From a virus (Duplodnaviria > Heunggongvirae > Uroviricota > Caudoviricetes), in the IMG/VR virus record IMGVR_UViG_3300037245_002365: 64,000 nt of DNA. One strand, 5' to 3'. Numbering within the stretch: the first letter of the stretch is position 1; each line of letters opens with the position of its first letter. The position numbers and the translations under genes were made by a program. Under the pieces are notes generated by a model that was not told where the DNA came from, did not search any database, and was given only the letters and a program-made list of their open reading frames with translations. Of the stretch, positions 26,907 to 49,337 are shown piece by piece.

Positions 26907-27524
26907 ATGGCAACAGCATCAGCAATGGGATACGAAAATTATCCTAGACTTGAAATAGTGGAATCGCCTTTTATGGAAGAGGGCAAAGCACTATTGATGG
27001 ATACGACAAAACTCAATTATATATCAAATATGCGTAAACCCTTCGATTTCGAAAGAGAATTTATGTGTGATTGGGCAATGCCAGAAGAATCAGAACCGAA
27101 ACAAACCAGACACAGAGATATGGCAAACATAGCAGATGGGACTACTTGGAAGTATGAAGGCAGTGACCACCTTTCTTTTAATAATAGCGTTTATGCTGGA
27201 ATAGGCATAGATCCACCAGCATTTCAACTACGAGTAAATACATATAGAAGCCCAGAAGAAATAAAAGAAATAATAATTAAAGAACTTTCAGAGTTCTGGT
27301 TAGTGCACTTAATTCTTAGCATTGATCAAGATGATTATACTGAAAGACGTACAGAAGAATTGACAGCAGAAAACACTACCGAGAAGCCAACAGTGTATAA
27401 TAATACCGGGCAAATAAAAGTAGATAACATGCAAATTGGTGATTGGACTTATAAAAATGACTACATATACACCGGCAATGACAGAATTTTAATAGGTTCA
27501 GGCGCAACAACATCAACCACATAA
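26907..27524 (+). CDS. Hypothetical protein (205 aa)
   Basis: ORF only. Confidence 0.6.
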   Translation: MATASAMGYENYPRLEIVESPFMEEGKALLMDTTKLNYISNMRKPFDFEREFMCDWAMPEESEPKQTRHRDMANIADGTTWKYEGSDHLSFNNSVYAGIGIDPPAFQLRVNTYRSPEEIKEIIIKELSEFWLVHLILSIDQDDYTERRTEELTAENTTEKPTVYNNTGQIKVDNMQIGDWTYKNDYIYTGNDRILIGSGATTSTT

Positions 27525-27531
27525 AAATATA

Positions 27532-27798
27532 ATGAATCCAGGCGAACAAATAGTTCCAGGAATACTGCCACAGGCAAAAATTAACATAACACCAGAAGAT
27601 GCACAACCAATGTTGTGCCCAGGGCAAGTTCCTCATTCAGAGACAGGAAATAAAACAGAAACTTGCGGACATAATACATACATACAGGTATTCAAACTAG
27701 GAAGAGTATCTAAATTACTAACAGGCCAACCAGAAGACATAATCATGCAAGTTGTTGAACTAGCATGTCAAAAATGCGGTCACATACTAAAGGATTAA
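27532..27798 (+). CDS. Zinc-ribbon small protein
   Basis: CPGQ...CGH...CQKCGH. Confidence 0.5.
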   Translation: MNPGEQIVPGILPQAKINITPEDAQPMLCPGQVPHSETGNKTETCGHNTYIQVFKLGRVSKLLTGQPEDIIMQVVELACQKCGHILKD

Positions 27799-28124
27799 TA
27801 TCAGTGAATGAAAAATCAATTAAATTTAAACATGAAGACTATGAAGTAGAGGTAAGGCCTAACGGAGAGAAGGACTACATAGTAGTACTCACATATTACG
27901 TTAAGAGATTTTTCTTTTTTGGAATAGCAAATAAGGTTACGCTTCGTTACACAGGTGGTCGTACCACATGGGAAACTTTCCCTGACCTTAAACCAGTAAA
28001 AGGATACACACAAACACTTCTGTATGATATTTGGAGAGAAGCAAGACACATTAGAAGAGAAAACGAGGAAGCGCTAGAGCGCTCCCATACTAATGGCGTA
28101 GATACATACACGCCAGGGAAATAA
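27765..28124 (+). CDS. Hypothetical protein
   Basis: 119-aa ORF. Confidence 0.5.
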   Translation: MSKMRSHTKGLISVNEKSIKFKHEDYEVEVRPNGEKDYIVVLTYYVKRFFFFGIANKVTLRYTGGRTTWETFPDLKPVKGYTQTLLYDIWREARHIRRENEEALERSHTNGVDTYTPGK

Positions 28125-28126
28125 TC

Positions 28127-28534
28127 ATGAGTTTATTTGAAACGAATAAAAAGTTTATAAAAGATGAGGCCGAAAAAGCCCAAAAAACATTAGAAAAATG
28201 TGGTTTTGACACACCAGAAAAACTACGGAGAAGGCATATGGAATTGTTTACATATGTTGGAGATGTGAAACTCAATATTATATTACATAGAGATTCATGG
28301 ACAAGCATAGATGTTGTGCTCGAATGTCCACATTGTGGAGAAGCAGTAGAAATAAATACTAGCAATCCAGAGGAAACTGGTATACTTATGAATACAGAGC
28401 ATACCTGCCCAGCGGCCAGATATCGCTATGATTCTGATAGTAGGTGTGAATGTACATTTGGTTGGGATATTGAATTGGGAAAAACAACTCATATTTTTAA
28501 ATGTCTTAAATACAAAGAGGAACATAATGACTAA
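28127..28534 (+). CDS. Hypothetical protein with a CPHCG motif
   Basis: 135-aa ORF. Confidence 0.55.
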   Translation: MSLFETNKKFIKDEAEKAQKTLEKCGFDTPEKLRRRHMELFTYVGDVKLNIILHRDSWTSIDVVLECPHCGEAVEINTSNPEETGILMNTEHTCPAARYRYDSDSRCECTFGWDIELGKTTHIFKCLKYKEEHND

Positions 28535-29040
28535 TGTCACTATCAACATTTCCCGAATTTGCAAGAATGGTACAAGATGGTTTAGACCGGGACCGGGAAG
28601 AAATATATCGTACCCGACCAATGGTTAGCGGGCCGTTACCACCTATGGGATATCCAGTAAAACCACCACCACCAACACTAAGAACACTTAGAAGAAGAGA
28701 GAGTAAAGAAATGGTAAACTCAGCACCTTATAATACCACATGCCCAAAATGCGAAATGACTAAAGCTAGAAAAGCTAGGCATGCCACAGCAGAAGTAAAT
28801 AATGCATATGGTAAAGTTTCTAAAGATGCCTTCTTTATTTTAATGAAGAAAGAAACTGATGCCAAAGAGAAAACAAATAGGGCAGTTAAAACATTAGTAC
28901 AGAGCCCACAAACACTACATTTAGATGTTAATGGTGTACTTAAGATTAGTTTTACTGCATATTGTTCTGTGTGTGGTTTAAAAATCAAGCATGAACAAGA
29001 AGTAAAATTCCCCGCAATAGAAGATGAAGCTTACGAGTAG
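28534..29040 (+). CDS. Zinc-ribbon hypothetical protein
   Basis: CPKCE...CSVCG. Confidence 0.55.
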   Translation: MSLSTFPEFARMVQDGLDRDREEIYRTRPMVSGPLPPMGYPVKPPPPTLRTLRRRESKEMVNSAPYNTTCPKCEMTKARKARHATAEVNNAYGKVSKDAFFILMKKETDAKEKTNRAVKTLVQSPQTLHLDVNGVLKISFTAYCSVCGLKIKHEQEVKFPAIEDEAYE

Positions 29041-29488
29041 GGTTCGTCGCGCTAAATATAAAAAGCGAGGCAATAACCCAGACAACAAAAATAAAAATCT
29101 ATGTAATTTAGAAGTAGCTACAAGACTTGGTGTGTCAGAGAACACCAAATACTTGCATACCAAAGAAGACGTATTACGAGCACTCAGACAGGCATACACA
29201 GTACGAAGCTGTAAAGCTCGTCTGGGGACGAGCCTAACTGTTGGTTCAGCAAGAAAGAAACTAATAGCTATCGCCAAAGGCGATACCAAAGCAATAGGTT
29301 TCTTAGTTATAGTATCTGGCAAAGTGTGGCATTCATTATTCCTATTGACTGATGGGTCAACAGAAATTGATACAAACCCAAAGAAAAATGATAGAAGAAA
29401 AATAGAGCATTGCTATCTAGTTAGGATCACAGATTTAAATAAATTTAAATCCAACACAGATGACAAGTGCTTTATAAGGATTACGTAA
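29024..29488 (+). CDS. Hypothetical basic protein
   Basis: 154-aa ORF. Confidence 0.5.
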   Translation: MKLTSRVRRAKYKKRGNNPDNKNKNLCNLEVATRLGVSENTKYLHTKEDVLRALRQAYTVRSCKARLGTSLTVGSARKKLIAIAKGDTKAIGFLVIVSGKVWHSLFLLTDGSTEIDTNPKKNDRRKIEHCYLVRITDLNKFKSNTDDKCFIRIT

Positions 29489-29844
29489 TGGAAATTAACA
29501 GAACTGTCCTCGAAGGTAACACCGCCGCATACTATCCAAACGCGCCTTTGGATGATAAGTGGTACATAGTTAAAGCACCTACGAAAAGATTCAGATTGCT
29601 TGAATGGTTAATACATGAGCCTGAAAGAAAGTTTAAACCTCTATGGGATTTATATAAATACCTAGGAGGACAGACCTCCTTAACCGGAAGAAACTTTAAA
29701 CATTTATGGCGCATATATAAATGTTCTACCGACAAAACGCCCGACAAACATATTGACAGCCACATAAACTTAAAGAAAGCAATAGAGTGGGTAGAGTTTC
29801 ATGAACAAATTAGAGTACAGAGAGAATTAAATGCAAAACCATGA
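29467..29844 (+). CDS. Hypothetical protein
   Basis: 125-aa ORF. Confidence 0.5.
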   Translation: MLYKDYVMEINRTVLEGNTAAYYPNAPLDDKWYIVKAPTKRFRLLEWLIHEPERKFKPLWDLYKYLGGQTSLTGRNFKHLWRIYKCSTDKTPDKHIDSHINLKKAIEWVEFHEQIRVQRELNAKP

Positions 29845-30037
29845 TGAAAAAGATATTCAAGAGGATATGCCAGAACTACGTATATGTAGTAAATGCAAAT
29901 CATTAGTTAATAAACTGTATGGTTTGATGGTCCCGCACTTGTGTAAACAGTGCTATGACAAAATGGTGCAATATCAAGAACAAGTTGATTATAGATGCAG
30001 CTTATGTAAACAAATTTATGCAAAATGTTGCTGTTAA
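29831..30037 (+). CDS. Cys-rich small protein
   Basis: CSKCK...CKQCYDK...CSLCK. Confidence 0.45.
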   Translation: MQNHDEKDIQEDMPELRICSKCKSLVNKLYGLMVPHLCKQCYDKMVQYQEQVDYRCSLCKQIYAKCCC

Positions 30038-30065
30038 TATAGAAGAAGTATTAGAGGATAAAAAA

Positions 30066-30863
30066 ATGAGTGATAAAACGTCTCTCGGAGACAGAATGAA
30101 AATATATGAGAAACTTAACGCTACAGCGTTGATGCCTCATTTACCAGTAATAGCAAGGATTGATGGCCGGGCATTCCATACATTTTGTAGGGGCTTTGAT
30201 AAGCCTTTCGATATGAGAATGGTAGCAGCCATGCAATCAACAACGGAATTTATATTTAATGAATTCAATCCTATGTTTGCACATACATTCAGTGATGAAA
30301 TAAACCTAATGTGGTATTATCCAGAACCTGAACAACAAATGGTGTTTGGTGGAAAAATACAAAAACTTTGCTCAGTGCTAGCTTCAGCAGCTACACTTAG
30401 GTTCAATGAAGCAAAACTGGAACTCTTTGAGGGTAATCCAATTGCTGAAAGAAAAGCAATGTTTGATTGTAGAGTATGGAATGTACCTACAACAGATGAA
30501 GTAGCTAACTACTTTGTATGGCGTGAACAAGATGCAGCTCGTAATAGTTTACAGATGCTTTCAAGAGCACATTATTCACACCATGAGTTGGAAGGCAAGA
30601 AACAGGCTGACATGCACGAGATGTTATATAAGAAAGCCATTAATTGGAATGAACAGCCGATGATATTAAAAGCCGGTAGTTATTACAGACCGAACCCAAC
30701 AACTCCTGCGGAACTTGTAAAATCTCGATATCCAATGCTTGATGGAAGCTTACTGAACCTGCCATATAGTACGGATGGTAAAACTCCACATGAGCAACGA
30801 CTAAGATTCATATTTAGACCAGAAGAAAGGGAATACGATGGCACAGAAAAGAAAGCTGAGTGA
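30066..30863 (+). CDS. Thg1-like protein (tRNA-His guanylyltransferase family, 3'-5' nucleotide addition)
   Basis: VIARIDGRAFHTFCRGFDKPFDMRMVAAMQ...FAHTFSDEINLMWYY matches the Thg1 core VVVRLDGRNFHRF...YGQSDEYSFVF. Start placed at the ATG after a GAGGA RBS. The ORF track shows an upstream extension. Confidence 0.6.
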   Translation: MSDKTSLGDRMKIYEKLNATALMPHLPVIARIDGRAFHTFCRGFDKPFDMRMVAAMQSTTEFIFNEFNPMFAHTFSDEINLMWYYPEPEQQMVFGGKIQKLCSVLASAATLRFNEAKLELFEGNPIAERKAMFDCRVWNVPTTDEVANYFVWREQDAARNSLQMLSRAHYSHHELEGKKQADMHEMLYKKAINWNEQPMILKAGSYYRPNPTTPAELVKSRYPMLDGSLLNLPYSTDGKTPHEQRLRFIFRPEEREYDGTEKKAE

Positions 30864-31041
30864 TGAAGAATATATTGCAGACGATGGGGTATCTTGTCCT
30901 TACTGCGGTAAACCGGGCACACAAAATGATGGATCCTTTGAAATGGATGGGCCAACCGTGTGGCAAAACAACAGTTGTAATCTTTGTGGGGCAGAGTGGG
31001 AAGATTGGTATCAATTGGTCTTCATACAACCAAGGTCTTAG
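30838..31041 (+). CDS. Zinc-ribbon small protein
   Basis: CPYCGKPG...CNLCGAEW. Confidence 0.45.
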   Translation: MAQKRKLSDEEYIADDGVSCPYCGKPGTQNDGSFEMDGPTVWQNNSCNLCGAEWEDWYQLVFIQPRS

Positions 31042-31063
31042 ATAAACTTTATAAGTAGATCTT

Positions 31064-31073
31064 GGTATAAGAA
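31064..31073 (+). promoter_or_regulatory. GGTATAAGAA promoter-like motif
   Basis: Exact motif 35 nt upstream of the 31108 ORF. Confidence 0.45.
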
Positions 31074-31107
31074 CAATAGTAAATTTAAATTACAAGGTAA
31101 AAAGAAA

Positions 31108-31389
31108 ATGAATATTTTTCCGTGGATACTATTAATTATTCTTAGTGTCCTAATAATCAAATTTGGAAAAAGGGCTTTAAATTGGTTAGGCGACTTCATC
31201 GATAATACTAATGCTCCTTCGTCAGAAATGACGGATAGAGTTAAAGTAGCAAAGGGTGAAGTATCTGATCTCAAGGTTGAAAAGAAAACTCTTTCAACTG
31301 AAGTAAGTTCGGCAGGAAAGGCTAGTGATCTAAAGGCGGACATTGGCAAACTCAAAGGTAAACTAAAAACAAAGGAAGATAATGATTAA
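31108..31389 (+). CDS. Single-pass membrane coiled-coil protein, partner of the SPFH protein
   Basis: N-terminal TM helix, then a charged coiled coil. Its stop overlaps the next start. Confidence 0.55.
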   Translation: MNIFPWILLIILSVLIIKFGKRALNWLGDFIDNTNAPSSEMTDRVKVAKGEVSDLKVEKKTLSTEVSSAGKASDLKADIGKLKGKLKTKEDND

Positions 31390-32638
31390 AACATTATTGA
31401 CTAGATTCGCACCAGCATTGCTCCTAGTAGCAATTGTTGTTCTGGCTGTGTTCAGCCAACAGATTCTTGAAACAAACTCACGCGGCCAGTATCAAATTAA
31501 GCAGGCGGCTGTCACCGGTGACATGAGCGCACGCTTAGAACCCGGTATGTACGGCCAATGGTTTGGTGATATTGACACTTGGAACAAAGCGGAGACGTTT
31601 TATTTCACAGCTGACTTTGACGGCGAAGGTGATACTAAAGCAGATAAATCAATTGAAGTACGCTTCAATGATGGTTCTATCGCTAAAATATCCGGCACAG
31701 CTCGAATCACATTACCATACACTGAAGCTGAAGCAGTCGCTTTGGTTGCTGATCATGGTTATAAAAGTTACAAGGAACTAGCACAGAAATTGGTTCTTCC
31801 TTCGGTTCGAAATGCATTACGATCCAGCGCTAACTTGATGTCAGTACGTGAAAGTTATTCTGAAAACAGACTTGATTTTATTAACTGGTCCCGAGATCAG
31901 CTGCAAAACGGTTTGTATAATACAGAAGAGATTACGAAGAAAGTTACTGATATATTAAGTGGTGAACAGGTTACCAGGACATTCAAAACGATACAGAAAG
32001 ATGCCAGCGGTACTCCAGTTTATCAGTTCAATCCTTTTGATGGTAAGGGAATAACAATTTCAAACTTTGAAATTAAGTCATTCAATTACTCTCCGAAGGT
32101 ACGTGAGCAGATTGCGGCTCAACAAGCAGCTTTGATGGCTGTTCAGACCGCACGAGCATTAGCGAAAGAAGCTGAGCAAAAAGCACTTACTACAGAGGCT
32201 GAGGGAAAAGCTGAGGTTATGCGCGTTAAATATGAAAACGAGCAAAACAAAATCGCGGCTATCATCAAAGGCGAACAAAGGCGTGATGTTGCTGAGTTAG
32301 CAAAAGCTGAAGCCGGGTTCACCAAGGAAGCTCAAATCCTAATCGCAGACGGTGAGGCTTATCGTAAGAGAGAAGTCATGGCCGCCGATGGTGCATTGGA
32401 TAAAAAGCTAGCAGCATTAGTTACAATTAATGGAGCTTTTGCCAAGGCTGTTGAAAATCATGTTGGTGCTTGGGTACCATCCATCGTATTTGGTGGGGGT
32501 GGATCAGGAGGATCGTCTGATTTGACTAATGGTATGAACGGCGTTCAAAACATGGTTGATTTGTTGACTCTTGCAGCAGCAAAAAACCTGTCTCTTGATA
32601 TGACGCTACCAACAACGTCGAAAACGGCTGTTCAATAG
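31382..32638 (+). CDS. SPFH/band-7 (stomatin/prohibitin/HflKC-like) membrane protein
   Basis: N-terminal TM helix, then an SPFH-like domain. Ala/Glu/Lys-rich coiled coil (EAEQKALTTEAEGKAEV...AKAEAGF) and a Gly-rich C-terminus. Confidence 0.55.
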   Translation: MIKTLLTRFAPALLLVAIVVLAVFSQQILETNSRGQYQIKQAAVTGDMSARLEPGMYGQWFGDIDTWNKAETFYFTADFDGEGDTKADKSIEVRFNDGSIAKISGTARITLPYTEAEAVALVADHGYKSYKELAQKLVLPSVRNALRSSANLMSVRESYSENRLDFINWSRDQLQNGLYNTEEITKKVTDILSGEQVTRTFKTIQKDASGTPVYQFNPFDGKGITISNFEIKSFNYSPKVREQIAAQQAALMAVQTARALAKEAEQKALTTEAEGKAEVMRVKYENEQNKIAAIIKGEQRRDVAELAKAEAGFTKEAQILIADGEAYRKREVMAADGALDKKLAALVTINGAFAKAVENHVGAWVPSIVFGGGGSGGSSDLTNGMNGVQNMVDLLTLAAAKNLSLDMTLPTTSKTAVQ

Positions 32639-32870
32639 CCAGTTGACAAACGAGGATATATTCCTCACGAATGAATTGCGATGCCGGGCCCATTCGGGTC
32701 CGGCATTGTCATATGAGGAACTTTTTTTATTATGTTAATGGCAATTAAACTGTTAGGTGTTTTCATACTCATGTGTATGTCAATAACAGCAGCAGTATAC
32801 TTTACATGGAAATACGAGCATGTCATATTTGATGATGTGCTACCACCCTTAGACCCACAGGAGAATAACG

Positions 32871-33182
32871 ATGAAACAGACAAAGATATTTGAGTTAGTA
32901 AATACCACAACAGATAAAGTACTAACCACAGAAACTTTCTGTGAAAATAAATCATTGGATGACTTAAATGATTTTTACAAATCAAGTTGTACAGACATTC
33001 GTTGGAGACTGGCTGAGAATCAACTAATGGCTCCAATGGAATTTGAAAATAGAATGATAGCTGCGACTAGAACAACTAATCCACAATCCAATGGTGATTA
33101 TCTAATGATGGAACTTTTAAGATCATTAGGTTATGGCGATGGTGTAAGTGTTTTCTTGAATATAGAAAGGAATTATGAGTGA
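32871..33182 (+). CDS. Hypothetical protein
   Basis: 103-aa ORF. Confidence 0.5.
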   Translation: MKQTKIFELVNTTTDKVLTTETFCENKSLDDLNDFYKSSCTDIRWRLAENQLMAPMEFENRMIAATRTTNPQSNGDYLMMELLRSLGYGDGVSVFLNIERNYE

Positions 33183-33397
33183 TGGCAACCTATTCAGCAG
33201 AACCTTGGACAATTAGAAGACATGGAGGAGATGGAAGATTTAAAAATGCACTCACTAGCGTTATGGATAGCGATGGTATTGAAGTGTGTGATACTTTAAG
33301 TCTTGCCCTGCCTATTGAAACGTGTGAAGCTAACGCAAAAATAATAATAGCAAAAAGAATAGTAATTATGAACGCAATTAAAGAGGATATGAAATGA
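33179..33397 (+). CDS. Hypothetical protein
   Basis: 72-aa ORF. Confidence 0.45.
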   Translation: MMATYSAEPWTIRRHGGDGRFKNALTSVMDSDGIEVCDTLSLALPIETCEANAKIIIAKRIVIMNAIKEDMK

Positions 33398-33398
33398 A

Positions 33399-33683
33399 AT
33401 GGCAACTGATGAAAAAATTGAAGAAAAAGAATTAACGATAGACGAGAAAATAGAAAAGTTCTACATCGAGTCTATAGAAGCGATTGAAAAATATAGAGGA
33501 AAGTCGTGGTATGCATATTACCTACGTAAAAGCATACTAGGTAAATATGGCGAACACGAAAATTTAGTTGATTGGGCATCTCTATTAGAAAACCCTGCAA
33601 GATCAAAAGCACTTAGTACTCTTAGAAACCTTAAGATAGAATTAGGTGATGTTATCACTGAAGTAACGGGATATAGGGACTAA
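33399..33683 (+). CDS. Hypothetical protein
   Basis: 94-aa ORF. Confidence 0.5.
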   Translation: MATDEKIEEKELTIDEKIEKFYIESIEAIEKYRGKSWYAYYLRKSILGKYGEHENLVDWASLLENPARSKALSTLRNLKIELGDVITEVTGYRD

Positions 33684-33929: not shown

Positions 33930-34397
33930 ATGTTAAATGAATCAAACGTAATAAATAGCTTTAGAGGTAAATATTTCTTTCTAAGTAACTTTTACGTTGT
34001 GTCACTTACCATGGATGATGGCAAAGAATATGCAACATCCGAGCACGCTTATCAAGCGGCAAAAATGGAAAGTAAAAAAGACGCAGAGAAAGTTAGGTTA
34101 GCTGCTAGTCCGAGTGTAGCTAAAAAATTAGGAAATGAATTAACAGCCAAAGAAGGTTGGGATTTCATTAAAATCGATATGATGAAAGATATCGTCGAAG
34201 TAAAGTTTTTCCAAAATGTTGAGATATACAAGAAATTATTAGAAACAGGTAAGGCCCACTTAGTAGAGGGCAACACTTGGAAGGATGATTTCTGGGGCGT
34301 GTATCAAGGCGTTGGGGATAACCACCTCGGAAAAATTTTAATGGAAATAAGAGAAGAAGCAAGTGATTGGGATATAGCTATCCTAACAACTAAGTAA
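33930..34397 (+). CDS. NADAR (YbiA/DUF1768) domain protein
   Basis: FRGKYFFLSNFY ... SEHAYQAAK ... DFWG ... LGKILMEIR match NADAR signature motifs (F-x-FYS-x-FSNF, EHYFQA-K, WG). Confidence 0.6.
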   Translation: MLNESNVINSFRGKYFFLSNFYVVSLTMDDGKEYATSEHAYQAAKMESKKDAEKVRLAASPSVAKKLGNELTAKEGWDFIKIDMMKDIVEVKFFQNVEIYKKLLETGKAHLVEGNTWKDDFWGVYQGVGDNHLGKILMEIREEASDWDIAILTTK

Positions 34398-39204: not shown

Positions 39205-39864
39205 ATGTTTCGCAAGTATGAGAAAACATATCGCATACTTGTTCCTCAGATTAACGTCAAAGGAAAGCACTTCCTTTCCAAAGACGAGATGCGCGCATTA
39301 CTTGGCGGGGAGGTAACCCTTCTCGAAAAGTTAGACGGCGCTAACACTGGCATTATCCCAACGCGAGACTGGTTCCGTTTGCAAAAACGGGGCTCTCTCG
39401 TGGATGCCAGTGAACATCATCAATTTAATTTTTTTAAAGCATGGTCTGAGCAGAACTATGAAAAGCTGATCGATATACCAAAACATTATAGGGTGTATGG
39501 GGAGCTTATGCGCTGTGTACACACAGTAAACTATAATAAACTTCCAGATTGGTTTGTAGTATTTGGTATCTTTGATACTAAATTAATGCAATACTTAAGC
39601 TGGAATAATGTGATAGCACTTTGTGATGGATGGGGACTTAGTACAGTACCAACCATAGCAAATGGTGTTCACGTAGAAAAAATGGACCTTTTCAACCTAA
39701 TACCAGATGTATCAGGTTATGGGGACGAGGCTGCGGAGGGCCTTGTAGTATGGAACTACAGAAGACAGATGAGAGGCAAACTTGTAAGAGAAGAATTTGT
39801 TAAACATATGGATAACTCCGGTCACTGGATGACCAAGGAGTTGAAATTTAACTCTTTGATTTAG
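39205..39864 (+). CDS. Rnl2-like RNA ligase, nucleotidyltransferase domain only
   Basis: N-terminus MFRKYEKTY matches the T4 Rnl2 N-terminus MFKKYSSLENHY. Motif I is EKLDGAN (KxDGxN). At 219 aa it lacks a C-terminal domain. Confidence 0.55.
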   Translation: MFRKYEKTYRILVPQINVKGKHFLSKDEMRALLGGEVTLLEKLDGANTGIIPTRDWFRLQKRGSLVDASEHHQFNFFKAWSEQNYEKLIDIPKHYRVYGELMRCVHTVNYNKLPDWFVVFGIFDTKLMQYLSWNNVIALCDGWGLSTVPTIANGVHVEKMDLFNLIPDVSGYGDEAAEGLVVWNYRRQMRGKLVREEFVKHMDNSGHWMTKELKFNSLI

Positions 39865-39888: not shown

Positions 39889-40632
39889 TTGGAATTATTA
39901 ATAAATGCTGGCGATTTTGAGTTACTCACACCGCCAGACGAATTGCGGGCACAAATGCGCCGTATGGAAAGAGCAGGTAGAACCTGCTATCAGTCAGAGA
40001 TCGGTGAAATCACCGATGTCACTGCTGAAAACTTTGTAAGAAAAATATTGCATCAGTTCCACCATGAGAGTGTAATTGAACATAGCTCTTTAACAGTGAA
40101 ATTTACAGGTGTATGCCGTGGATTCACTCATGAATTAGTACGTCACAGATTAGCGTCTTTCTCTCAGGAAAGCACACGATATGTAGACTATGCTAAATCT
40201 GAAACTAAGGGTGCTGCAGACATAGTAGACCTTGATAGATTTGAATTACGTTGTGTTGCACCACCACACAGAGATGTGGATGAAAAATTTCAAGTCCATG
40301 ACAATTTCACTGGGCATGTAATGAAGTCTTACAGAGATATGCTTGAAGAAATGGAAGCCAACTACAAAGCTTTACGTAAAGCTGGTTGGGTACCACAAGA
40401 TGCAAGGCAAATACTGCCAATAGCAACTGAAAGTGATATTGTTGTTACGGCTAACTGGAGAGAATGGAGACACATTCTTACAATGAGAACGGGTAAACCT
40501 GCTCATTGGGAAATTAGGCGTGTAATGTGCAACTTACTGCAAGTATTACAGGAAACTATCCCAGTAATATTTGAAGATTTTGTAGAAGCAGGTACTAGCG
40601 ATGGTGTTCTATATTATTCAAGATTCAAGTAA
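39889..40632 (+). CDS. thyX: Flavin-dependent thymidylate synthase ThyX
   Basis: ELVRHRLASFSQESTRY is the ThyX RHRxxSxxxxSxRY signature. The start appears to be TTG. Confidence 0.75.
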   Translation: MELLINAGDFELLTPPDELRAQMRRMERAGRTCYQSEIGEITDVTAENFVRKILHQFHHESVIEHSSLTVKFTGVCRGFTHELVRHRLASFSQESTRYVDYAKSETKGAADIVDLDRFELRCVAPPHRDVDEKFQVHDNFTGHVMKSYRDMLEEMEANYKALRKAGWVPQDARQILPIATESDIVVTANWREWRHILTMRTGKPAHWEIRRVMCNLLQVLQETIPVIFEDFVEAGTSDGVLYYSRFK

Positions 40633-40676: not shown

Positions 40677-41222
40677 ATGACTGATAAGAAAATTTACTAC
40701 ACAGGAATCGGATCACGCTCAACACCCGCAGCTTATATGCTCTTGATGGAGAATTTTGCTGAAAGGCTATCAAGGCTAGATATAATTTTAAGATCTGGTG
40801 GTGCAGATGGAGCAGACAGTGCATTTGAAAAGGGAGTAATAGGAGATTTAAAAGAAATCTTTCTCCCATGGCCAAATTTTAATCATAATAAATCTGATTT
40901 ATGTAATATAAGCGTAGAAGCATACAAACTTGCTTGGGAACATCACCCACATTGGGCAGCCTTAAAGCAATCAGTTAGAAAATTACATGCAAGAAACGTT
41001 CATCAGATTTTAGGTAAGGACTTGAAGACTCCGTCTTCAGCAGTTATTTGCTGGACACAAGATGGTGCAAACACAGCTAAAGATTGTACTAGATTAACTG
41101 GCGGTACAGGGATGGCTATCAGAATAGCACATGAGCACAAAGTGCCTGTCTATAATATAAAGAACAGAGAAGACTACTCTAAATGCATAGAGTGGATTAC
41201 TAATTTAGGGGACCAAAAATGA
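40677..41222 (+). CDS. DprA/Smf-like SLOG-family Rossmann-fold protein
   Basis: YYTGIGSRSTP...ILRSGGADGADSAFEKGV matches the DprA pattern vGsR-x-P...SG-A-GiD-aAH. Confidence 0.5.
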   Translation: MTDKKIYYTGIGSRSTPAAYMLLMENFAERLSRLDIILRSGGADGADSAFEKGVIGDLKEIFLPWPNFNHNKSDLCNISVEAYKLAWEHHPHWAALKQSVRKLHARNVHQILGKDLKTPSSAVICWTQDGANTAKDCTRLTGGTGMAIRIAHEHKVPVYNIKNREDYSKCIEWITNLGDQK

Positions 41223-41404
41223 TTTCAAAGATTAAAAAAGTTATTCTAATATATGACTGTGAATATTTAGAAGAAGAGGTAGAAGTTGAAATTACTGATA
41301 ACATTGTATTGTCAGAGTATACTCGTGGATTAGATGTGATTGCTGAAGTGTATTGTTCGTGTATGCGTTTACACAAATTCATACTAAAAAAAGAAGAACG
41401 ATGA
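41219..41404 (+). CDS. Hypothetical small protein
   Basis: 61-aa ORF coupled to its neighbours. Confidence 0.4.
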   Translation: MISKIKKVILIYDCEYLEEEVEVEITDNIVLSEYTRGLDVIAEVYCSCMRLHKFILKKEER

Positions 41405-42564
41405 AATTTACACACGACAAATTACAAGAGTATATAGATAAGAAAATGCTGATGCGACAGAAGCATCCAGTATTCGATTACTATATCTATAACTATACTC
41501 CAGAGGTACAATTTAAGAAACTCTGGAACCCTACGCTTATGGCATGTAGAGGCCTAATTTTGGATGGAGACAGCAATGTTATTGCTCGACCATTTACTAA
41601 GTTCTTTAATTACTCTGAATTAGGACCATCTGCAAGAGGAACACTCAATAGACGGGTTAGTGAAGTCTACGAAAAAATGGACGGTAGCTTGGGTATAATG
41701 TACCCCCACCCTGGTTTTGAAGAGTTTAGTATTGCAAGCAGAGGAAGTTTTACCTCTCCGCAGGCACTATTCGGTACTGATTTATTGAATAATAAATACA
41801 GGAAGTGGACTAAACATTTTAGATATGAACCAGAAAATTTCCCAGAGAACAGTATTTTTCTAGCAGAAAAAACAGTAATTTTTGAGATAATTTATCCCGA
41901 AAACAGAATAGTAGTTAACTATGGCGATATGGAAGATATGGTTTATCTAGGTGTTGTTGAAAACAGTACCGGAAACGATCTTTATCCAGTAATAGAAAAA
42001 GACTGGCCCTTTCCTGTTGTTCGTAGATACACAGAATTAGAAAACCTCACTATGGATGAATTGGTAGAGCGTGTTAACAACCACGAAGATTACGGTAATA
42101 ACCGTGAAGGTTACGTGGTAAAATTTAAGAACGGCTCTCGAACCAAATTGAAATATCCTGATTATATCAGGTTACATCGAATAATGACTGATATGAGTGA
42201 GAAACGAATTCTTGAAGCAGTGATCCAAGGACCGCTGTCTGAAGAATTCTTGGATGGTGTTCCAGATGAATGCTATGATTGGCTGAAAGATGTAGAGAAA
42301 CGATTCAGAGCTGAATACGAAACAATCAAATTATCTTGCCAGCTATTCTATCAACAGTGCCAATTAAAACAGATAGGGGACGCACCAAAGTTCACCAGAA
42401 AAGATTGGGCATTAGCATTTCTTAAGACGCCTTACCCAGCAGTGCTATTTAATATGCTAGATGGAAATGATTATTCACCAGCGATTTGGGCCAAAATTGA
42501 GCCTAAACCCGGAAAACAAACCTTTCAGACGTCTGGATATAATAGAACTAAAGAAAAGACTTGA
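41401..42564 (+). CDS. rnlA: RNA ligase 1 (T4 Rnl1 family)
   Basis: LMACRGLILDGDSNVIARPFTKFFN ... EKMDGSLG ... IASRGSFTSPQA aligns with T4 Rnl1 [27 protein letters not shown] ... KEDGSL ... KSKGSIKSEQA. Start placed at the ATGA overlap. Confidence 0.7.
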   Translation: MKFTHDKLQEYIDKKMLMRQKHPVFDYYIYNYTPEVQFKKLWNPTLMACRGLILDGDSNVIARPFTKFFNYSELGPSARGTLNRRVSEVYEKMDGSLGIMYPHPGFEEFSIASRGSFTSPQALFGTDLLNNKYRKWTKHFRYEPENFPENSIFLAEKTVIFEIIYPENRIVVNYGDMEDMVYLGVVENSTGNDLYPVIEKDWPFPVVRRYTELENLTMDELVERVNNHEDYGNNREGYVVKFKNGSRTKLKYPDYIRLHRIMTDMSEKRILEAVIQGPLSEEFLDGVPDECYDWLKDVEKRFRAEYETIKLSCQLFYQQCQLKQIGDAPKFTRKDWALAFLKTPYPAVLFNMLDGNDYSPAIWAKIEPKPGKQTFQTSGYNRTKEKT

Positions 42565-42763: not shown

Positions 42764-42837
42764 GTCTCAGTAGCTCAGTCTGGTAGAGCGCCGTCCCTCC
42801 AAGTCGGATGTCGCAGGTTCAAATCCTGTCTGGGACT
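42764..42837 (+). tRNA. tRNA, most likely Gly (anticodon TCC); an alternative reading of the loop gives Trp (CCA)
   Basis: Hand-folded. Acceptor GTCTCAG/CTGGGAC (one G-U), D-arm GCTC/GAGC, T-arm GCAGG-TTCAAAT-CCTGT. Anticodon stem CCGTC/GTCGG has one T-T mismatch. Loop is CCTCCAA. Confidence 0.65.
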
Positions 42838-42863
42838 CACAATTAGGAAAACCAAATATTAAT

Positions 42864-43346
42864 ATGATTGATTTACAACAGTTTGTAAGATTTATACAAA
42901 GCGGCGGTGCTGCATATGATGGCTATGCTTATGGCTATGGTCGTGAACAACGTGGCCAAGCCATATATGAAATAAGAATCCATCCAGAAGATTTTGAAAC
43001 GCTTCGAGAGCAGCTTGCTAGAGCTTACGGAGGTATGCCTATGTATCAACATGACCCTTATGGACGTCAAGATACCTACAGACAAATTATGGGCCAAAAC
43101 TTCCAAATAGATAATAATATAGCTATCGGAAGTATAGGTGTTTTTTTTCGACCGCCACAACAAATAGAATTGAGTGGTCCAACAGAAAAACCGAAGGAAC
43201 CACCAGTATCTATGAAAGAGGTTTGTGATAGTATGATACAGACTTTAACAGAAGAAACAAAAGACATGAACTACCTGAAAACGACAGTAGCTGATGTACA
43301 GCCTATAAGAGGAAGGATGCCGAACGATGAAGAGAGGGTATTTTGA
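42864..43346 (+). CDS. Hypothetical protein
   Basis: 160-aa ORF directly after the tRNA. Confidence 0.55.
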   Translation: MIDLQQFVRFIQSGGAAYDGYAYGYGREQRGQAIYEIRIHPEDFETLREQLARAYGGMPMYQHDPYGRQDTYRQIMGQNFQIDNNIAIGSIGVFFRPPQQIELSGPTEKPKEPPVSMKEVCDSMIQTLTEETKDMNYLKTTVADVQPIRGRMPNDEERVF

Positions 43347-43764
43347 AATAGGGATTATAAATGGCAAAGATAAGGCTAATATAGGTACTCTATGGCGCTC
43401 TGCATATCAATTAGGGGCATCGGGTATTTTCACAATAGGTGCTAGATACTCACACCAAAAAAGCGACACAACAAAAGCTATAAAACACATACCATTAAGA
43501 CAGTACGAGACGTTTGAAGAATTTATGAAGATCAAACCGAAGGAAGCACGCTTAATCTGTGTAGAAACGGGAGGCTCACCACTAAAAAGGTTTGTACATC
43601 CTACTTCTGCAATATACTTATTAGGCGCGGAAGATACAGGTATACCAGAGTATATACAAGTCGAGAGCGACTACATTATTTCACTACAATCTGTAAATAT
43701 ATCATCATATAATGTATCTGTAGCAGGAACCTTAGTTATGTATGACAGGATGTTTAATAAATAA
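43327..43764 (+). CDS. SpoU/TrmH-family RNA 2'-O-methyltransferase
   Basis: IGIINGKDKANIGTLWRSAYQLGASGIF matches the SPOUT motif (PEN-GN-GTL-RSA-AFGA) and is followed by LLGAEDTGI. Confidence 0.6.
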   Translation: MKRGYFEIGIINGKDKANIGTLWRSAYQLGASGIFTIGARYSHQKSDTTKAIKHIPLRQYETFEEFMKIKPKEARLICVETGGSPLKRFVHPTSAIYLLGAEDTGIPEYIQVESDYIISLQSVNISSYNVSVAGTLVMYDRMFNK

Positions 43765-43776
43765 CCAAAAATTAAA

Positions 43777-44211
43777 ATGATTAAAGATCATTATGTTGCA
43801 GGCTTTGTCTTTGACAAAGAACTAGAACATATCTATTTAATTAGAAAAAACAGACCAAGTTGGCAGGAAGGCTTGCTAAATGGAATCGGCGGACACATAG
43901 AGGCTAATGAGTCTCCACTATCCGCAGTGGTTAGAGAGTTTATAGAAGAAACTGCCACTAAAGTAAATGCAGAAGATTGGCATCATATTGCTACCATATC
44001 CAGCAAACCAGATAAAACTTCTGGATTCCCATGGGAATGCTGGTTTTTCATGGCAGTTACTGGACAGACTCCAGTAACCAATACAGATGAAGAAGTTGTT
44101 AAAGTTAGATTAACTGACTTACATGATGGGGACGTAATACCAAATTTAAACTGGTTAATACCTTTAGCACTGCATGGTGAGAAAAGTTGGCCAGTGATAG
44201 CAAATGAGTAA
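43777..44211 (+). CDS. Nudix hydrolase
   Basis: Nudix box GGHIEANESPLSAVVREFIEETA (Gx5Ex7REUxEExGU). Confidence 0.7.
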   Translation: MIKDHYVAGFVFDKELEHIYLIRKNRPSWQEGLLNGIGGHIEANESPLSAVVREFIEETATKVNAEDWHHIATISSKPDKTSGFPWECWFFMAVTGQTPVTNTDEEVVKVRLTDLHDGDVIPNLNWLIPLALHGEKSWPVIANE

Positions 44212-44221
44212 AGGAACATAA

Positions 44222-44653
44222 ATGATATTTTCAGCAGGTGTGATGATCAGAAGAACATCCGATAATAACGTTTTAATATGTCGACCCCTCATGGGTAAGA
44301 CAGCACGCTCTTTTCCAAAGGGAGAAGTTGATGACGGAGAAACTTACGCCCAAACAGCAAAAAGAGAAACTTTTGAAGAAACAAATATAGACCTTCCATT
44401 AGAATCTCTAAAGTATATGGGTCAGTTTAAATATGTTAAGAGAAATAAAACTATCGTTCTATTCTCTGCAACAATAGATGACAAGGATTTACCGGATGAG
44501 CTTATTTGCTCATCAACGTTCCAGCTAAAGGGCAAAGGCCCTCAGTTACCAGAAGTAGATAAATTTGAATGGGTAACCATTTCAGATGCTATCGAACTTG
44601 TGCATGAAGCACAATCAAGGGTCGTTAAGAATTACGTGACAGAAAAAATGTAA
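44222..44653 (+). CDS. Nudix hydrolase (second copy)
   Basis: Nudix box GEVDDGETYAQTAKRETFEETNI. Confidence 0.7.
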   Translation: MIFSAGVMIRRTSDNNVLICRPLMGKTARSFPKGEVDDGETYAQTAKRETFEETNIDLPLESLKYMGQFKYVKRNKTIVLFSATIDDKDLPDELICSSTFQLKGKGPQLPEVDKFEWVTISDAIELVHEAQSRVVKNYVTEKM

Positions 44654-44661
44654 GGAACCGA

Positions 44662-44961
44662 ATGAAAGTTGTATATGATACTGCAGGTATGGAAGAAATG
44701 ATAGACAGTGCAGGTAAAAGGGTATTACACCATCCGAAAGGAAGCTGTAAAAACCAAGAAGCTGGCTGTCCAGTACATAACCCATCAGAGCACAAATTAA
44801 ATGAGGCACCCTTGTTTTTTGCTGATGAGTTATTGTTTCCAGTATTCTTTAGAGTATGCGAACATGGACATAGACATCCAGATCCAGACTCTTTACGTTA
44901 TTATAGAGATATGGGATATTCATTAAATGACAACCACGAATGTGATGGTTGTTGCACATAA
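44662..44961 (+). CDS. His/Cys-rich small protein (metal-binding?)
   Basis: HHPKGSCKNQEAGCPVHNPSEH...CEHGHRH...CDGCC. Confidence 0.5.
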   Translation: MKVVYDTAGMEEMIDSAGKRVLHHPKGSCKNQEAGCPVHNPSEHKLNEAPLFFADELLFPVFFRVCEHGHRHPDPDSLRYYRDMGYSLNDNHECDGCCT

Positions 44962-45062
44962 AAATTATGGAGGGAGTGTAAGGATGTCTAAGTACGTACT
45001 AGAGATACCTTACTACGAGAGGATGACTCAACTCCCTCCGTCACTTTAAAAAAGGAAATTAA

Positions 45063-45335
45063 ATGAGAGATATAAAAGAAGTTATTAGCAGAATGCTTGA
45101 AGTAATTAATGAGCAATCAGAAATAAGCGTTTACATTGAATCGCTTATTGCCGGACTGGAAGATATTCGACTTAGGGTTGATAAAAACCAATCCAACGAC
45201 TTGGCTTGGGGAGGTATAGGACATTATCTTTCAACTTATATGCTCAACTCAAACGATCCAGAATCACCGGAGTGGACAAGAGAGGTTGCCGCATTATTTG
45301 TTGGCAAAACCTACATAGCTCCAGTAACGGAATAG
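45063..45335 (+). CDS. Hypothetical protein
   Basis: 90-aa ORF with a GGAAAT RBS. Confidence 0.5.
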   Translation: MRDIKEVISRMLEVINEQSEISVYIESLIAGLEDIRLRVDKNQSNDLAWGGIGHYLSTYMLNSNDPESPEWTREVAALFVGKTYIAPVTE

Positions 45336-45337
45336 AA

Positions 45338-45577
45338 ATGCTTGACAACAAAAACTTCACAACAATAGTCTATTATGCAGAAGACATAAAAAAGTGGGAA
45401 TATAAACTTACTACCGGCAAACTGATCCTACAAGATGGACGATGGTTTGTTGAAGGTGGGTTTACTATTTCTGGTGGAGCTACTACAGCTGCAAAAGCTT
45501 ATCGCTCAGCAAGAATAAGTTTAGGGCTCAGTAAGTTATATAATTTGCTTATATGGCTTTTGGACAAATACAGATAG
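45338..45577 (+). CDS. Hypothetical protein
   Basis: Starts at the ATG right after the previous stop. The upstream extension shown in the ORF track (from 45206) is not trusted. Confidence 0.45.
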   Translation: MLDNKNFTTIVYYAEDIKKWEYKLTTGKLILQDGRWFVEGGFTISGGATTAAKAYRSARISLGLSKLYNLLIWLLDKYR

Positions 45578-46056
45578 ATAAGAAAGATATGGACGAACAA
45601 AACACAAGATCGTACGATAGCACGAAAGACACCGTTGATCATATAAACAATGTACAAGAGTACCTTCTTTTGATGGCTACTAAATTGCTTGATCGAGGAT
45701 TAAATCATGATAGGTCAAAATTAGATGACCCTGAATTGGAAATATTCAATGAGTTTACTCCAAAGTTAAAGCAATTAACATTCGATAGTGATGAATATAA
45801 GAAATGTCGTGAAGAAATGGCACCAGCGTTAAACCACCATTATGCAAAGAACAGGCATCACCCTGAACACTTTGCTGAAGGGATAAATGATATGACGTTG
45901 ATTGACATTTTAGAGATGCTGTGTGACTGGAAAGCAGCCACACTTCGCCAAAATGATGGCAATCTTAGAAAGAGTCTTGATTCGGCTTCAAAACGATTTA
46001 ATATAGACACACAACTTAAGAAAATACTGTTAAATAGTATTGGGTTGTTTGACTAA
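45553..46056 (+). CDS. HD-domain phosphohydrolase
   Basis: H...NHDRSKL...HHYAKNRHHPEH...D gives the H/HD/H/H/D metal-ligand pattern. Confidence 0.5.
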   Translation: MAFGQIQIDKKDMDEQNTRSYDSTKDTVDHINNVQEYLLLMATKLLDRGLNHDRSKLDDPELEIFNEFTPKLKQLTFDSDEYKKCREEMAPALNHHYAKNRHHPEHFAEGINDMTLIDILEMLCDWKAATLRQNDGNLRKSLDSASKRFNIDTQLKKILLNSIGLFD

Positions 46057-46063
46057 GGTTTGA

Positions 46064-46104
46064 GAAGCAAGCAAAGTTTATTAATTATTTTGCTTGCTTT
46101 TCGA
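46064..46104 (+). terminator. Rho-independent terminator
   Basis: GAAGCAAGCAAAG...TTTGCTTGCTTTT. It overlaps the -35 region of the HNH promoter. Confidence 0.6.
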
Positions 46105-46122
46105 TTCACAATTGTTTATATT
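46094..46122 (+). promoter_or_regulatory. sigma70-like promoter of an HNH gene (TTGCTT-17-TATATT). The ATG lies 6 nt after the -10, so the mRNA is probably leaderless.
   Basis: The same architecture sits upstream of all four HNH paralogs. Confidence 0.55.
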
Positions 46123-46127
46123 TAAGT

Positions 46128-46709
46128 ATGAAAGTTAAATGTAAATACTGTGAAATAGAATTCGACAAGAGACCGGATCAAGTTAAAAAATACAAAAATC
46201 ATTTTTGTAGTAGATCACACGCCGCGTCTTATAATAATAAGATTCACCCAAAATGTAGTTTCGACGGTATTAAAAATGTCTACTGTTTAGATTGTGAAAA
46301 ACCACTTAAGCATAAAACTCACCCTAGAAAAAAATATTGCAATCAGCAGTGCCAAATGAGTTTTCAACACAAAGAGTACATCAGAAGATGGCTCATTGGG
46401 GAAGAAACGGGTAATAGGTGTAAGACTGAGGTATCGATTTCGAAACATGTACGTAGATGGATTTTTGAAAAATATGACAACAAATGTTGTAAATGTGGTT
46501 GGGATAAGATTAACACAACTACGAATAAAATACCACTACAAGTAAGTCATATTGATGGGAACCCTTATAATACAATACCAGAAAATTTAGAACTTATATG
46601 CCCAAATTGCCATTCTTTAACTCCTACGTTTGGAGGACTGAATACAGGTAACGGCAGAAAATTAGAGAGCAATAAGGAAAAATATAGAGCATCGGGCCAC
46701 TGGGTGTAG
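46128..46709 (+). CDS. HNH homing endonuclease (free-standing)
   Basis: Cys-rich CxxC pairs. HNH core ...HIDGNPYNT...NLELICPNCH. The last ~8 codons overlap tRNA-Asp. Confidence 0.7.
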   Translation: MKVKCKYCEIEFDKRPDQVKKYKNHFCSRSHAASYNNKIHPKCSFDGIKNVYCLDCEKPLKHKTHPRKKYCNQQCQMSFQHKEYIRRWLIGEETGNRCKTEVSISKHVRRWIFEKYDNKCCKCGWDKINTTTNKIPLQVSHIDGNPYNTIPENLELICPNCHSLTPTFGGLNTGNGRKLESNKEKYRASGHWV

Positions 46710-46761
46710 CCACCTCCCTGTCACGGAGGATATCAGGCCGGTTCGAACCCGGTATGCTCTG
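46686..46761 (+). tRNA. tRNA-Asp (GTC)
   Basis: Perfect acceptor AGAGCAT/ATGCTCT. Anticodon stem CCTCC/GGAGG with loop CTGTCAC. T-arm GCCGG-TTCGAAC-CCGGT. Short 3-bp D-stem and a 7-nt variable loop. Confidence 0.65.
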
Positions 46762-46803
46762 CGGGGTTGGCCGGTTACCCGTTGAATCGAAAAACGGCAT
46801 TTT

Positions 46804-46878
46804 GGGGATATAGTTTAAATGGGAAAACATTGCCCTTGCAAGGCAAAATTTCGAGTTCGAGCCTCGATTTCTCCACCA
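46804..46878 (+). tRNA. tRNA-Ala (TGC), with encoded CCA
   Basis: D-arm GTTT/AAAC. Anticodon stem TTGCC/GGCAA with loop CTTGCAA. T-arm TCGAG-TTCGAGC-CTCGA. Acceptor GGGGATA/TTTCTCC has one U-U mismatch. Confidence 0.65.
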
Positions 46879-46914
46879 AATTCAATAAAAACAATAATTT
46901 ATGAAGGAGATACT

Positions 46915-47091
46915 ATGTTTGTAAATTTAAATGCAATGACAGATGAAGCGTATCAAGCCTTCATGGAAAAGTATCAAGAAAAAGTATTCGGAATTATCAT
47001 TGAAGCAGAATTTGAAATGGTTGAGAAGAAAGAAACATTTAGAGATAAGATAGGAAAATTGGTAGAAACAATAAAATCAATTAGAAAGTAA
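46915..47091 (+). CDS. Small hypothetical protein
   Basis: AAGGAG RBS 7 nt upstream. The longer ORF starting at 46819 overlaps tRNA-Ala. Confidence 0.5.
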   Translation: MFVNLNAMTDEAYQAFMEKYQEKVFGIIIEAEFEMVEKKETFRDKIGKLVETIKSIRK

Positions 47092-47747
47092 TGAAGATTG
47101 TAGCGATTGCAGATACACATATGCTCCATAATGACTTGATGGTCCCCGAGGGTGACCTACTTATCCACGCAGGAGACATGTGTACATATGGTAGAGAAAA
47201 TGAAGCTAGAGAAACTGCCAAATGGTGGAAATCCTTACCCCACCCTCATAAAATCTATGTTCCAGGAAATCATGATGTATCAATATATGAAAATCGTAGT
47301 TTAAGAGAATTATATGAGGATGAAAATAGCCACGTCTTAATTGACGAGGCTCTAGAAATTGATGGGATTAAGTTTTGGGGTAGCCCATGGACGCCAGAGT
47401 TTTGTGGATGGGCATTTATGCTACAAAGGGGCGGAGACGTACTAGCAAACAATTGGGCTGCTATTCCTGATGACACTGACGTGTTAATTACCCATGGCCC
47501 ACGCTTTGGGTATGGAGATAGAAACGAAGAAAATCTTCCAGTTGGGTGTGAAGCACTAGCTTGGCGGCTAGAGCAAATGCCTGATTTGAAGTACCATATC
47601 TTCGGACACATCCATACAGATTATGGTATAAGAAGATTCAATAACACCTCTGTTATAAACGCTTCTATACATGAGGGTACGTGGAAACACCACGACTTTA
47701 CCCCACCTATTGTTTTTGAGTATGGAGAAGAACCCCATTATGGGTAA
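47091..47747 (+). CDS. Calcineurin-like metallophosphoesterase
   Basis: Motifs IADTH, GDMCTYG, GNHD, GH-H. Confidence 0.7.
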   Translation: MKIVAIADTHMLHNDLMVPEGDLLIHAGDMCTYGRENEARETAKWWKSLPHPHKIYVPGNHDVSIYENRSLRELYEDENSHVLIDEALEIDGIKFWGSPWTPEFCGWAFMLQRGGDVLANNWAAIPDDTDVLITHGPRFGYGDRNEENLPVGCEALAWRLEQMPDLKYHIFGHIHTDYGIRRFNNTSVINASIHEGTWKHHDFTPPIVFEYGEEPHYG

Positions 47748-47898
47748 GAAAAAAATAAAACCGCCTAAGTCAAAATCTTTGACTAAATATCCGATACCAC
47801 CTACTACAAGAGAGGAAGATACCTCGAAACACACTAAAAAAGAGCGGCGGGAAAATAAAAAAGATATGAAGAATATTGAAATTGATTCAGAATAATTG

Positions 47899-47981
47899 GC
47901 CCTGCAGCATTGTGGCATAAATGCGCTAAACTAAGCATGCCCATGGTTTAGAGATATCGGTTCGAGTCCGTTCAGGGTTCA
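47899..47981 (+). ncRNA. tRNA-like element with canonical acceptor, D and T arms but an oversized anticodon region
   Basis: Acceptor GGCCCTG/CAGGGTT. D-arm GCAT-x10-ATGC. T-arm ATCGG-TTCGAGT-CCGTT. A 6-bp stem CTAAAC/GTTTAG encloses a 14-nt loop. Confidence 0.35.
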
Positions 47982-47984
47982 AAA

Positions 47985-48365: not shown

Positions 48366-48395
48366 AATAATTTTAACTTAAAAAATGGTGAAATA

Positions 48396-49332: not shown

Positions 49333-49337
49333 TAAAT

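Follow-up and report, generated by a model that had tools for sequence, protein, structure and literature searches.

The stretch of viral DNA analysed here (64,000 nucleotides, hereafter the window) has a G+C content of 37.7% and consists almost wholly of small, co-directional open reading frames (ORFs). It forms part of a 70,180-bp Logan contig from run SRR11832402. The window lacks structural genes, and its gene content suggests that the source is a large lytic phage. The gene at the centre of this analysis is the following.

30066-30863, plus strand: Thg1-like protein (TLP), 265 amino acids, with matches to PF04446, PHROG 4717 and PDB 4kgk

The ORF ends at 30863, and its longest frame opens at 29955. 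The ATG at 30066 is preceded by a GAGG ribosome-binding site 8 nt upstream and agrees with the N-termini of the aligned homologues. An alternative start at 30018 is computed from the 281-residue version of the protein (P0001), which the gene caller picked on the source contig. A scan of positions 27500-33500 for promoters and terminators gave counts that are not above those of shuffled sequence. The 3' end of the TLP gene is overlapped by 26 nt by a 67-residue ORF (30838-31041), which contains two CxxC pairs and resembles a zinc ribbon, with weak Pfam matches under the cut-off.

Assignment to the Thg1 family

The initial annotation had placed a Thg1-family ORF at this position and named a search with the Pfam Thg1 profile PF04446 as the check. 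When this search was run with the 265-residue protein, the profile scored 102 bits (E 2.9e-29) over profile positions 2-130 of 130, well over the curated cut-off of 29.2 bits. PHROG 4717 ("tRNA-His guanylyltransferase") matches with an E-value of 2.5e-76. Of the proteins with a solved structure, the Bacillus thuringiensis TLP (BtTLP, PDB 4kgk; E 5.5e-40, residues 6-204) matches best; the Methanosarcina TLP 5axk (2.8e-14) ranks second, ahead of the Candida, human and yeast Thg1 proteins. PF14413 (Thg1C) reaches 20.7 bits against a cut-off of 26.3 and aligns over profile positions 3-76 of 116 only, and a search of NCBIfam with the window TLP gave no match. The strength of the matches is far beyond chance and, together with the fold match described below, bears out the family membership: positions 30066-30863 encode a Thg1-like protein. 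The Thg1 motif that had been spelled out for this protein is only approximately literal, as VIARIDGRAFHTF fits, whereas the sequence near SDE reads FAHTFSDEINLMW.

Active site and overall fold

The active-site residues were mapped by alignment to BtTLP (PDB 4kgk), with the roles of the BtTLP residues taken from the published description (PMC3701042). The corresponding residues of the window TLP are as follows.

D33, D77 and E78 (BtTLP D30, D75 and E76): metal ligands
K46 (BtTLP K43): ATP-activation lysine
H38 (BtTLP H35): contact to the ribose 3'-OH
K100 and R136 (BtTLP K99 and R131): triphosphate contacts
Ala19 (BtTLP R16): triphosphate contact, not kept in the window TLP
M164 (BtTLP M158): position occupied by Asn in eukaryotic Thg1

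The catalytic carboxylates, on whose presence in an alignment the initial annotation had made its assignment depend, are thus all found, as D33, D77 and E78; these three residues, together with K100 and R136, are invariant across the 27 aligned homologues. We take the three BtTLP carboxylates to correspond to D29, D76 and E77 of the human enzyme.

The HINNLYN motif is eukaryote-specific and serves anticodon recognition (PMC6471195). At its position, the window TLP has AARNSLQ and BtTLP has ASKNSIS, while Candida Thg1 has HINNLYN itself. Since the motif is replaced much as in BtTLP, the window protein is a TLP-type rather than a Thg1-type enzyme, and its E-values are 5.5e-40 and 2.8e-14 against the TLPs and 1.8e-12 to 5e-07 against the eukaryotic Thg1 proteins. 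On this alignment, the window protein is classed as a bacterial-type TLP that is predicted to be catalytically competent, with an active site that is intact save for the R16 equivalent.

An AF2 model of the window TLP, built with 27 homologues, has a pLDDT of 85.7 and a pTM of 0.83. When it was searched against the PDB with Foldseek, the top 32 matches were all Thg1/TLP chains (E 4e-18 to 1e-10), with BtTLP in first place (4e-18). The final ~55 residues are divergent, and the model is of low confidence at residues 215-235 and 255-265. The window TLP also lacks ~20 residues of the LPxKHxARxNP...PPLxKVxNR segment, which is conserved in most of the close homologues.

Genes surrounding the TLP gene

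The other protein-coding genes recognised in the window that bear on the context of the TLP gene are listed below.

8605-9234, 46128-46709, 49338-49832 and 54885-55469: HNH endonuclease genes
31382-32638: SPFH/Band-7 protein
33930-34397: protein with a NADAR domain (PF08719, E 8.6e-28), encoded 3 kb downstream of the TLP
39205-39864, plus strand: Rnl2-family RNA ligase nucleotidyltransferase domain protein, 219 amino acids, with a KLDG motif (PF09414, E 2.3e-24; PHROG 24030 and 548, "RNA ligase")
39889-40632: thymidylate synthase-like gene
40677-41222: DprA-like gene
41353-42564, plus strand: Rnl1-family RNA ligase (T4 gp63-like), 403 amino acids, with a KMDG motif (PHROG 562, E 1.2e-69; PF09511, E 1e-18)
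43777-44653: two NUDIX genes
47091-47747, plus strand: calcineurin-like metallophosphoesterase (PF00149, E 2.2e-12; PHROG 1649)
48723-49217: HAD-type 5'-3' deoxyribonucleotidase

The presence of two RNA ligases in the window, as proposed initially, is confirmed by their Pfam and PHROG matches and by a KxDG motif in both. Both are found downstream, at distances of 8.3 and 10.5 kb from the TLP gene and near the tRNA array, and the metallophosphoesterase is a possible RNA 3'-end healing enzyme. The genes immediately beside the TLP gene are without a recognisable function, no RNA-repair domain was recognised in the ORFs flanking it within ~3 kb, and no Walker-A kinase was found in the window. Thus, the TLP gene of the window does not stand next to a kinase, phosphoesterase, ligase or RlaP gene.

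NADAR enzymes reverse the ADP-ribosylation of guanine bases, and the NADAR gene may therefore be a counter-defence gene of the anti-DarT type. At the right end of the window, three consecutive genes (59952-63242) code for a protein with a VWA domain, a PP2C-like phosphatase and a weakly kinase-like protein (PF00069, E 0.0069, under the cut-off); this trio could form a signalling module.

The tRNA array and tRNA-His

Downstream of the ligases, the window carries a tRNA region with the following features.

42764-57331, plus strand: tRNA region with 12 tRNAs (ARAGORN), two tRNA-like elements and interspersed HNH genes
47906-47980: tRNA-like element (Rfam tRNA, 31 bits)
57104-57169: tRNA-like element (Rfam tRNA, 40.9 bits) with normal acceptor and T arms and a stunted anticodon arm, 6 nt upstream of tRNA-Pro
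57257-57331, with G-1 at 57256, plus strand: tRNA-His(GTG) (ARAGORN; Rfam, 60.9 bits) with C73 and an encoded CCA

The tRNA region of phage T5 has a similar layout, with HNH genes interspersed. The HNH ORF at 46128-46709 of the window overlaps the start of tRNA-Asp (46686), and the HNH genes and this overlap suggest a turnover of the tRNA array by homing endonucleases, as in T5.

Both tRNA-like elements were missed by ARAGORN and are similar to what the T5 annotation calls "tRNA-like stable RNAs". The initial annotation had offered the maturation of such aberrant genes as one job for the TLP, an idea that the analysis does not support. The elements at 57104-57169 and 47906-47980 encode whole 5' acceptor strands, and no 5'-truncated tRNA-like gene was found. 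Nothing in the sequence demands a 5'-adding enzyme for maturation.

Direct reading of the sequence confirmed that tRNA-His has a genomic G-1 opposite C73. Because G-1 is encoded in this way, non-templated addition of the eukaryotic type is not needed, and to this extent the enzyme is indeed dispensable for canonical G-1, as had been claimed. However, C73 can also template a G-1, and the TLP could therefore restore a G-1 that had been lost, which makes a role on tRNA-His possible. The TLP would then re-add G-1 opposite C73 on the phage or host tRNA-His after +1 cleavage by RNase P or after loss of G-1, securing histidine charging during infection. As C73 makes the addition templated, it would fall within TLP chemistry, and BtTLP does add N-1 to tRNA-His in a template-dependent manner (PMC3061083). 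In addition, the computed pairs of the acceptor stem of the window tRNA-His include two mismatches, U5.U68 and U6.U67, which could make the choice of site by RNase P less reliable. The weighing of this reading is taken up below with the neighbourhoods of other TLP genes.

The acceptor stem GUGAUUG/CUUUCAC of the window tRNA-His is identical in the tRNA-His (8985-9057) of L165, an otherwise different IMG/VR contig of 508 kb, while these tRNAs differ from each other in the anticodon and T stems; the double U.U mismatch therefore looks conserved rather than accidental. In phage T5 (L083, AY543070), tRNA-His (10206-10283) has the stem GTGGCTA/TAGCCAC and C73, and its genomic -1 base is T and not G. 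The annotation of this tRNA in the T5 record takes in the extra -1 base.

In the 12 window tRNAs, positions 1-3 depart from regular pairing only by G1.U72 in tRNA-Glu and tRNA-Arg (49836-49911 and 53186-53261), C1xU72 in an initiator-like tRNA-Met and the expected G3.U70 in tRNA-Ala. The window contains two tRNA-Met(CAT) genes, at 51962-52038 and 52062-52136, separated by 23 nt. The first has the acceptor strand CGCGGGG, which is that of the E. coli initiator tRNA, together with the C1xU72 mismatch and an encoded CCA. In the second, the stem is the same except for A1-U72, and the T loop, AGCGAAG, is aberrant in that the usual TTC is missing.

The three deviations at 1:72 (tRNA-Glu, tRNA-Arg and tRNA-Met) bring up tRNA 5' editing of the mitochondrial style, by which encoded 5' mismatches would be removed and then rewritten by the TLP. 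Near viral TLP genes, G1.U72 is frequent: it occurs in 37 of 197 unique tRNAs (loci L009-L080), chiefly for Glu, Arg and Leu and usually with A73, and G.U at acceptor positions 2-7 of such tRNAs amounts to 3-7%. Nevertheless, G.U is a stable pair, and G1.U72 is also present in one of the eight tRNAs of T4 (tRNA-Arg) and in two of the 23 tRNAs of T5 (tRNA-Val and tRNA-Tyr). T4 and T5 are not known to carry a TLP gene. G1.U72 is therefore not specific to TLP-encoding phages, and as the counts are also phylogenetically non-independent, we dropped it as a TLP-linked signal. A mismatch at 1:72 is a normal feature of bacterial initiator tRNAs, and the annotated initiator of T5 has U1.U72. An editing nuclease is not apparent. 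Real mismatches at positions 1-3 hardly occur in about 190-197 TLP-adjacent tRNAs, and the 12 window tRNAs show no concentration of mismatches there; editing is thereby largely refuted and, as the role of the TLP, highly improbable.

Relatives in phages and bacteria

TLP relatives were found in 162 GenBank phage records, all at less than 60% identity and usually annotated as tRNA-His guanylyltransferase. These phages are mostly large or jumbo phages, with Bacillus, Caulobacter, Erwinia, Pseudomonas, Mycobacterium and Prevotella (Lak) among the hosts or types represented, and they include Pseudomonas phage 201phi2-1, Pectobacterium phage CBB, Cronobacter phage GAP32 and Bacillus phage Bc431v3. 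Large and jumbo phage genomes with a TLP also bear tRNAs and RNA-repair genes (PMC7824862). The best identity of the window TLP to a protein of an isolated phage is at most 46% among the matches listed.

In IMG/VR, 362 stretches carry TLP relatives, the best at 53% identity, and a search with a single-protein query returned only one locus, which was weak. Relatives also occur in the genomes of more than 547 species; at the head of these stand Gemmata, Nannocystis and other Myxococcota, with identities of 45-49%. A large protein database yielded 1,165 relatives at E <= 1e-10; among the matches listed, full-length relatives reach at most ~51% identity, save for the identical P0001, and a 189-residue fragment shares 75% identity with the window TLP over half of the query. 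In a neighbour-joining tree of 154 leaves, the viral and cellular TLPs are thoroughly mixed, with 24 inferred switches, and the window TLP sits on a long branch nearest to viral loci.

When positions 29000-32000 were compared with GenBank phages by megablast, there was no match, and the identity of the SPFH and Rnl1 proteins of the window to any sequence in these phages does not exceed 36%. By these comparisons, the surrounding genome appears to have no close isolated relative among GenBank phages.

Neighbourhoods of TLP genes in other phages

We sampled 80 viral loci with 10 kb on each side of the TLP gene, which fell into 61 groups after dereplication at 90% TLP identity. The resulting counts, which are descriptive because they are drawn from TLP loci alone without a matched background, place tRNA genes within 10 kb of the TLP gene in 25 of the 61 groups, a calcineurin-like phosphoesterase, PF09414 RNA ligase, AAA_33 P-loop kinase or RlaP gene (Pfam-verified) in 18, and either tRNA genes or an RNA-repair family in 36. 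The directly adjoining arrangements that recur are TLP-phosphoesterase-x-kinase, ligase-TLP, RlaP-TLP and phosphoesterase-TLP; NAD-salvage and NUDIX genes are other frequent neighbours. Shared local synteny of the window with other TLP phages was considered and dropped, as the phosphoesterase, ligase, kinase and RlaP clusters that recur near the TLP genes of other phages had no tblastn match in the window.

These neighbourhoods bear on the upkeep of G-1 in tRNA-His. A tRNA-His gene does lie ~320 nt upstream of the TLP gene at one locus (L023). However, tRNA-His accounts for only 4 of the ~220 tRNAs near viral TLP genes and is not enriched, every one of these tRNA-His genes already encodes G-1, and the recurrent partners of the TLP are end-healing and sealing enzymes rather than tRNA-His genes. 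We therefore regard the upkeep of G-1 as an unlikely main role.

The recurrent partners are also what a different activity would call for, in which the TLP closes gaps within broken RNA stems or works on RNAs other than tRNA. A kinase would supply the 5' phosphate, the TLP would lengthen the 3' fragment at its 5' end with the opposite strand as template, and a ligase would seal the nick; the TLP would thereby be the 5'-end counterpart of RlaP, with its predicted role in restoring lost nucleotides. In several phage lineages, TLP genes adjoin those for AAA_33 kinases, phosphoesterases, ligases and RlaP. Substrates other than tRNA are used by some eukaryotic TLPs, Dictyostelium TLP4 among them, in keeping with the second form of this proposal. 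The neighbourhoods also agree with earlier predictions that tied Thg1 to polynucleotide kinases (PMC2904730), a link that favours gap filling, and phage copies to RNA repair (PMC7824862). On the other hand, no kinase was found in the window, and we consider gap filling at internal nicks or a non-tRNA substrate to be quite unlikely here.

Proposed role in the repair of tRNA 5' ends

On balance, the TLP probably serves mainly to repair the 5' ends of tRNAs in general while the phage infects its host, by templated 3'-5' addition, a reading that we hold with modest confidence. The enzyme would use ATP or GTP to activate an RNA end that bears a 5' monophosphate (adenylylation or guanylylation), add a nucleotide that forms a Watson-Crick pair with the opposite 3' strand of the recessed helix, and release pyrophosphate. 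The missing 5' nucleotides of the tRNA acceptor stem would thus be rebuilt, so that 5'-nibbled or truncated tRNAs of the host or the phage would be restored during infection. The TLP would be part of an accessory RNA toolkit that comprises the tRNA array, the Rnl1 and Rnl2-like ligases, the phosphoesterase and the NUDIX enzymes.

We infer all three elements of this proposal, namely the enzyme activity (by homology), the use of tRNA as substrate in vivo and the origin of the damage. Template-dependent addition by the window TLP is expected from its homology to BtTLP and MaTLP (PMC3061083, PMC4820378). BtTLP kinetically prefers 5'-truncated tRNAs of any identity over -1 or G-1 addition (PMC3061083), which argues against the upkeep of G-1, and general repair of tRNA 5' ends is therefore favoured. 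This role is made plausible by the protein family, the intact active site, the TLP-type features and the RNA-repair context in related phages. Against it stand the window itself, where the neighbours of the TLP gene carry no recognised RNA-repair domain, no Walker-A kinase was found and the ligases are 8-11 kb away, and above all the source of the damage. The phage-defence nucleases covered by the literature search attack tRNAs in the anticodon loop or stem, in the D-loop, on the 3' side of the acceptor stem (retron Eco2, PMC12916289) or at the 3' tail (Cas12a3), and not one of them is reported to shorten tRNA 5' ends. The lesions made by these described nucleases cannot be mended by a 3'-5' polymerase, which is the main weakness of the repair reading.

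As a more tentative and rather doubtful proposition, phage TLPs may be a counter-defence against a yet-undescribed host nuclease that removes 5' nucleotides of the tRNA stem or leaves gapped nicks. A kinase or phosphoesterase would heal the ends, the TLP would replace the lost 5' nucleotides with the complementary strand as its template, and a ligase would seal the break. If this is true, the TLP would represent a third arm of phage tRNA repair, beside anticodon-loop religation and CCA re-addition.

Relation to earlier work

The TLP gene class, its presence in phages and the idea of repair versus host defence are already published (2010 and 2021; PMC2904730, PMC7824862), and phage genome papers mention the TLP merely as an annotation (PMC3601020, PMC6292376). 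A literature search found no experimental study of any phage TLP and no demonstrated natural job for 3'-5' RNA polymerases in bacteria or their viruses. What is new here is one divergent TLP example and the neighbourhood statistics from the 61 dereplicated viral loci; the annotation of the window TLP is solid but ordinary. Reverse-direction (3'-5') RNA polymerases are rare enzymes, yet phage copies are common. If phage TLPs repair tRNA 5' ends in infection, this would point to a host attack on tRNA that is absent from the defences described in the literature searched, a question that the window gene alone does not open.

Comparison with known Thg1 and TLP systems

By both sequence and fold, BtTLP (4kgk/4kgm) is the closest solved structure to the window TLP, with 34-39% identity over ~207 aligned columns in the Foldseek comparison. 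The two proteins have in common the metal carboxylates, the activation lysine, the absence of HINNLYN and a Met where eukaryotic Thg1 has Asn, and their triphosphate-binding residues are the same, except that R16 of BtTLP is Ala19 in the window TLP. Unlike BtTLP, the window TLP is phage-encoded, and its C-terminal ~55 residues are divergent. The eukaryotic Thg1 enzymes (yeast, human and Candida) share the palm fold and the two-metal active site with the window TLP, at 22-25% identity over the structural alignments, but the window TLP lacks their HINNLYN motif. Whereas eukaryotic Thg1 adds G-1 opposite A73 in a non-templated manner, G-1 is encoded here and position 73 is C.

Dictyostelium TLP3, which acts in amoebozoan mitochondrial tRNA 5' editing, repairs acceptor stems by templated 3'-5' addition, the chemistry that is also expected of the window TLP (PMC6471195). 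In contrast to the setting of that enzyme, the window phage tRNAs do not have mismatches at positions 1-3 that would call for editing. Finally, although the local gene order of the window phage differs from that of the phages represented in PHROG 4717 (201phi2-1, CBB, GAP32 and Bc431v3), the window TLP belongs to the same protein family as theirs.
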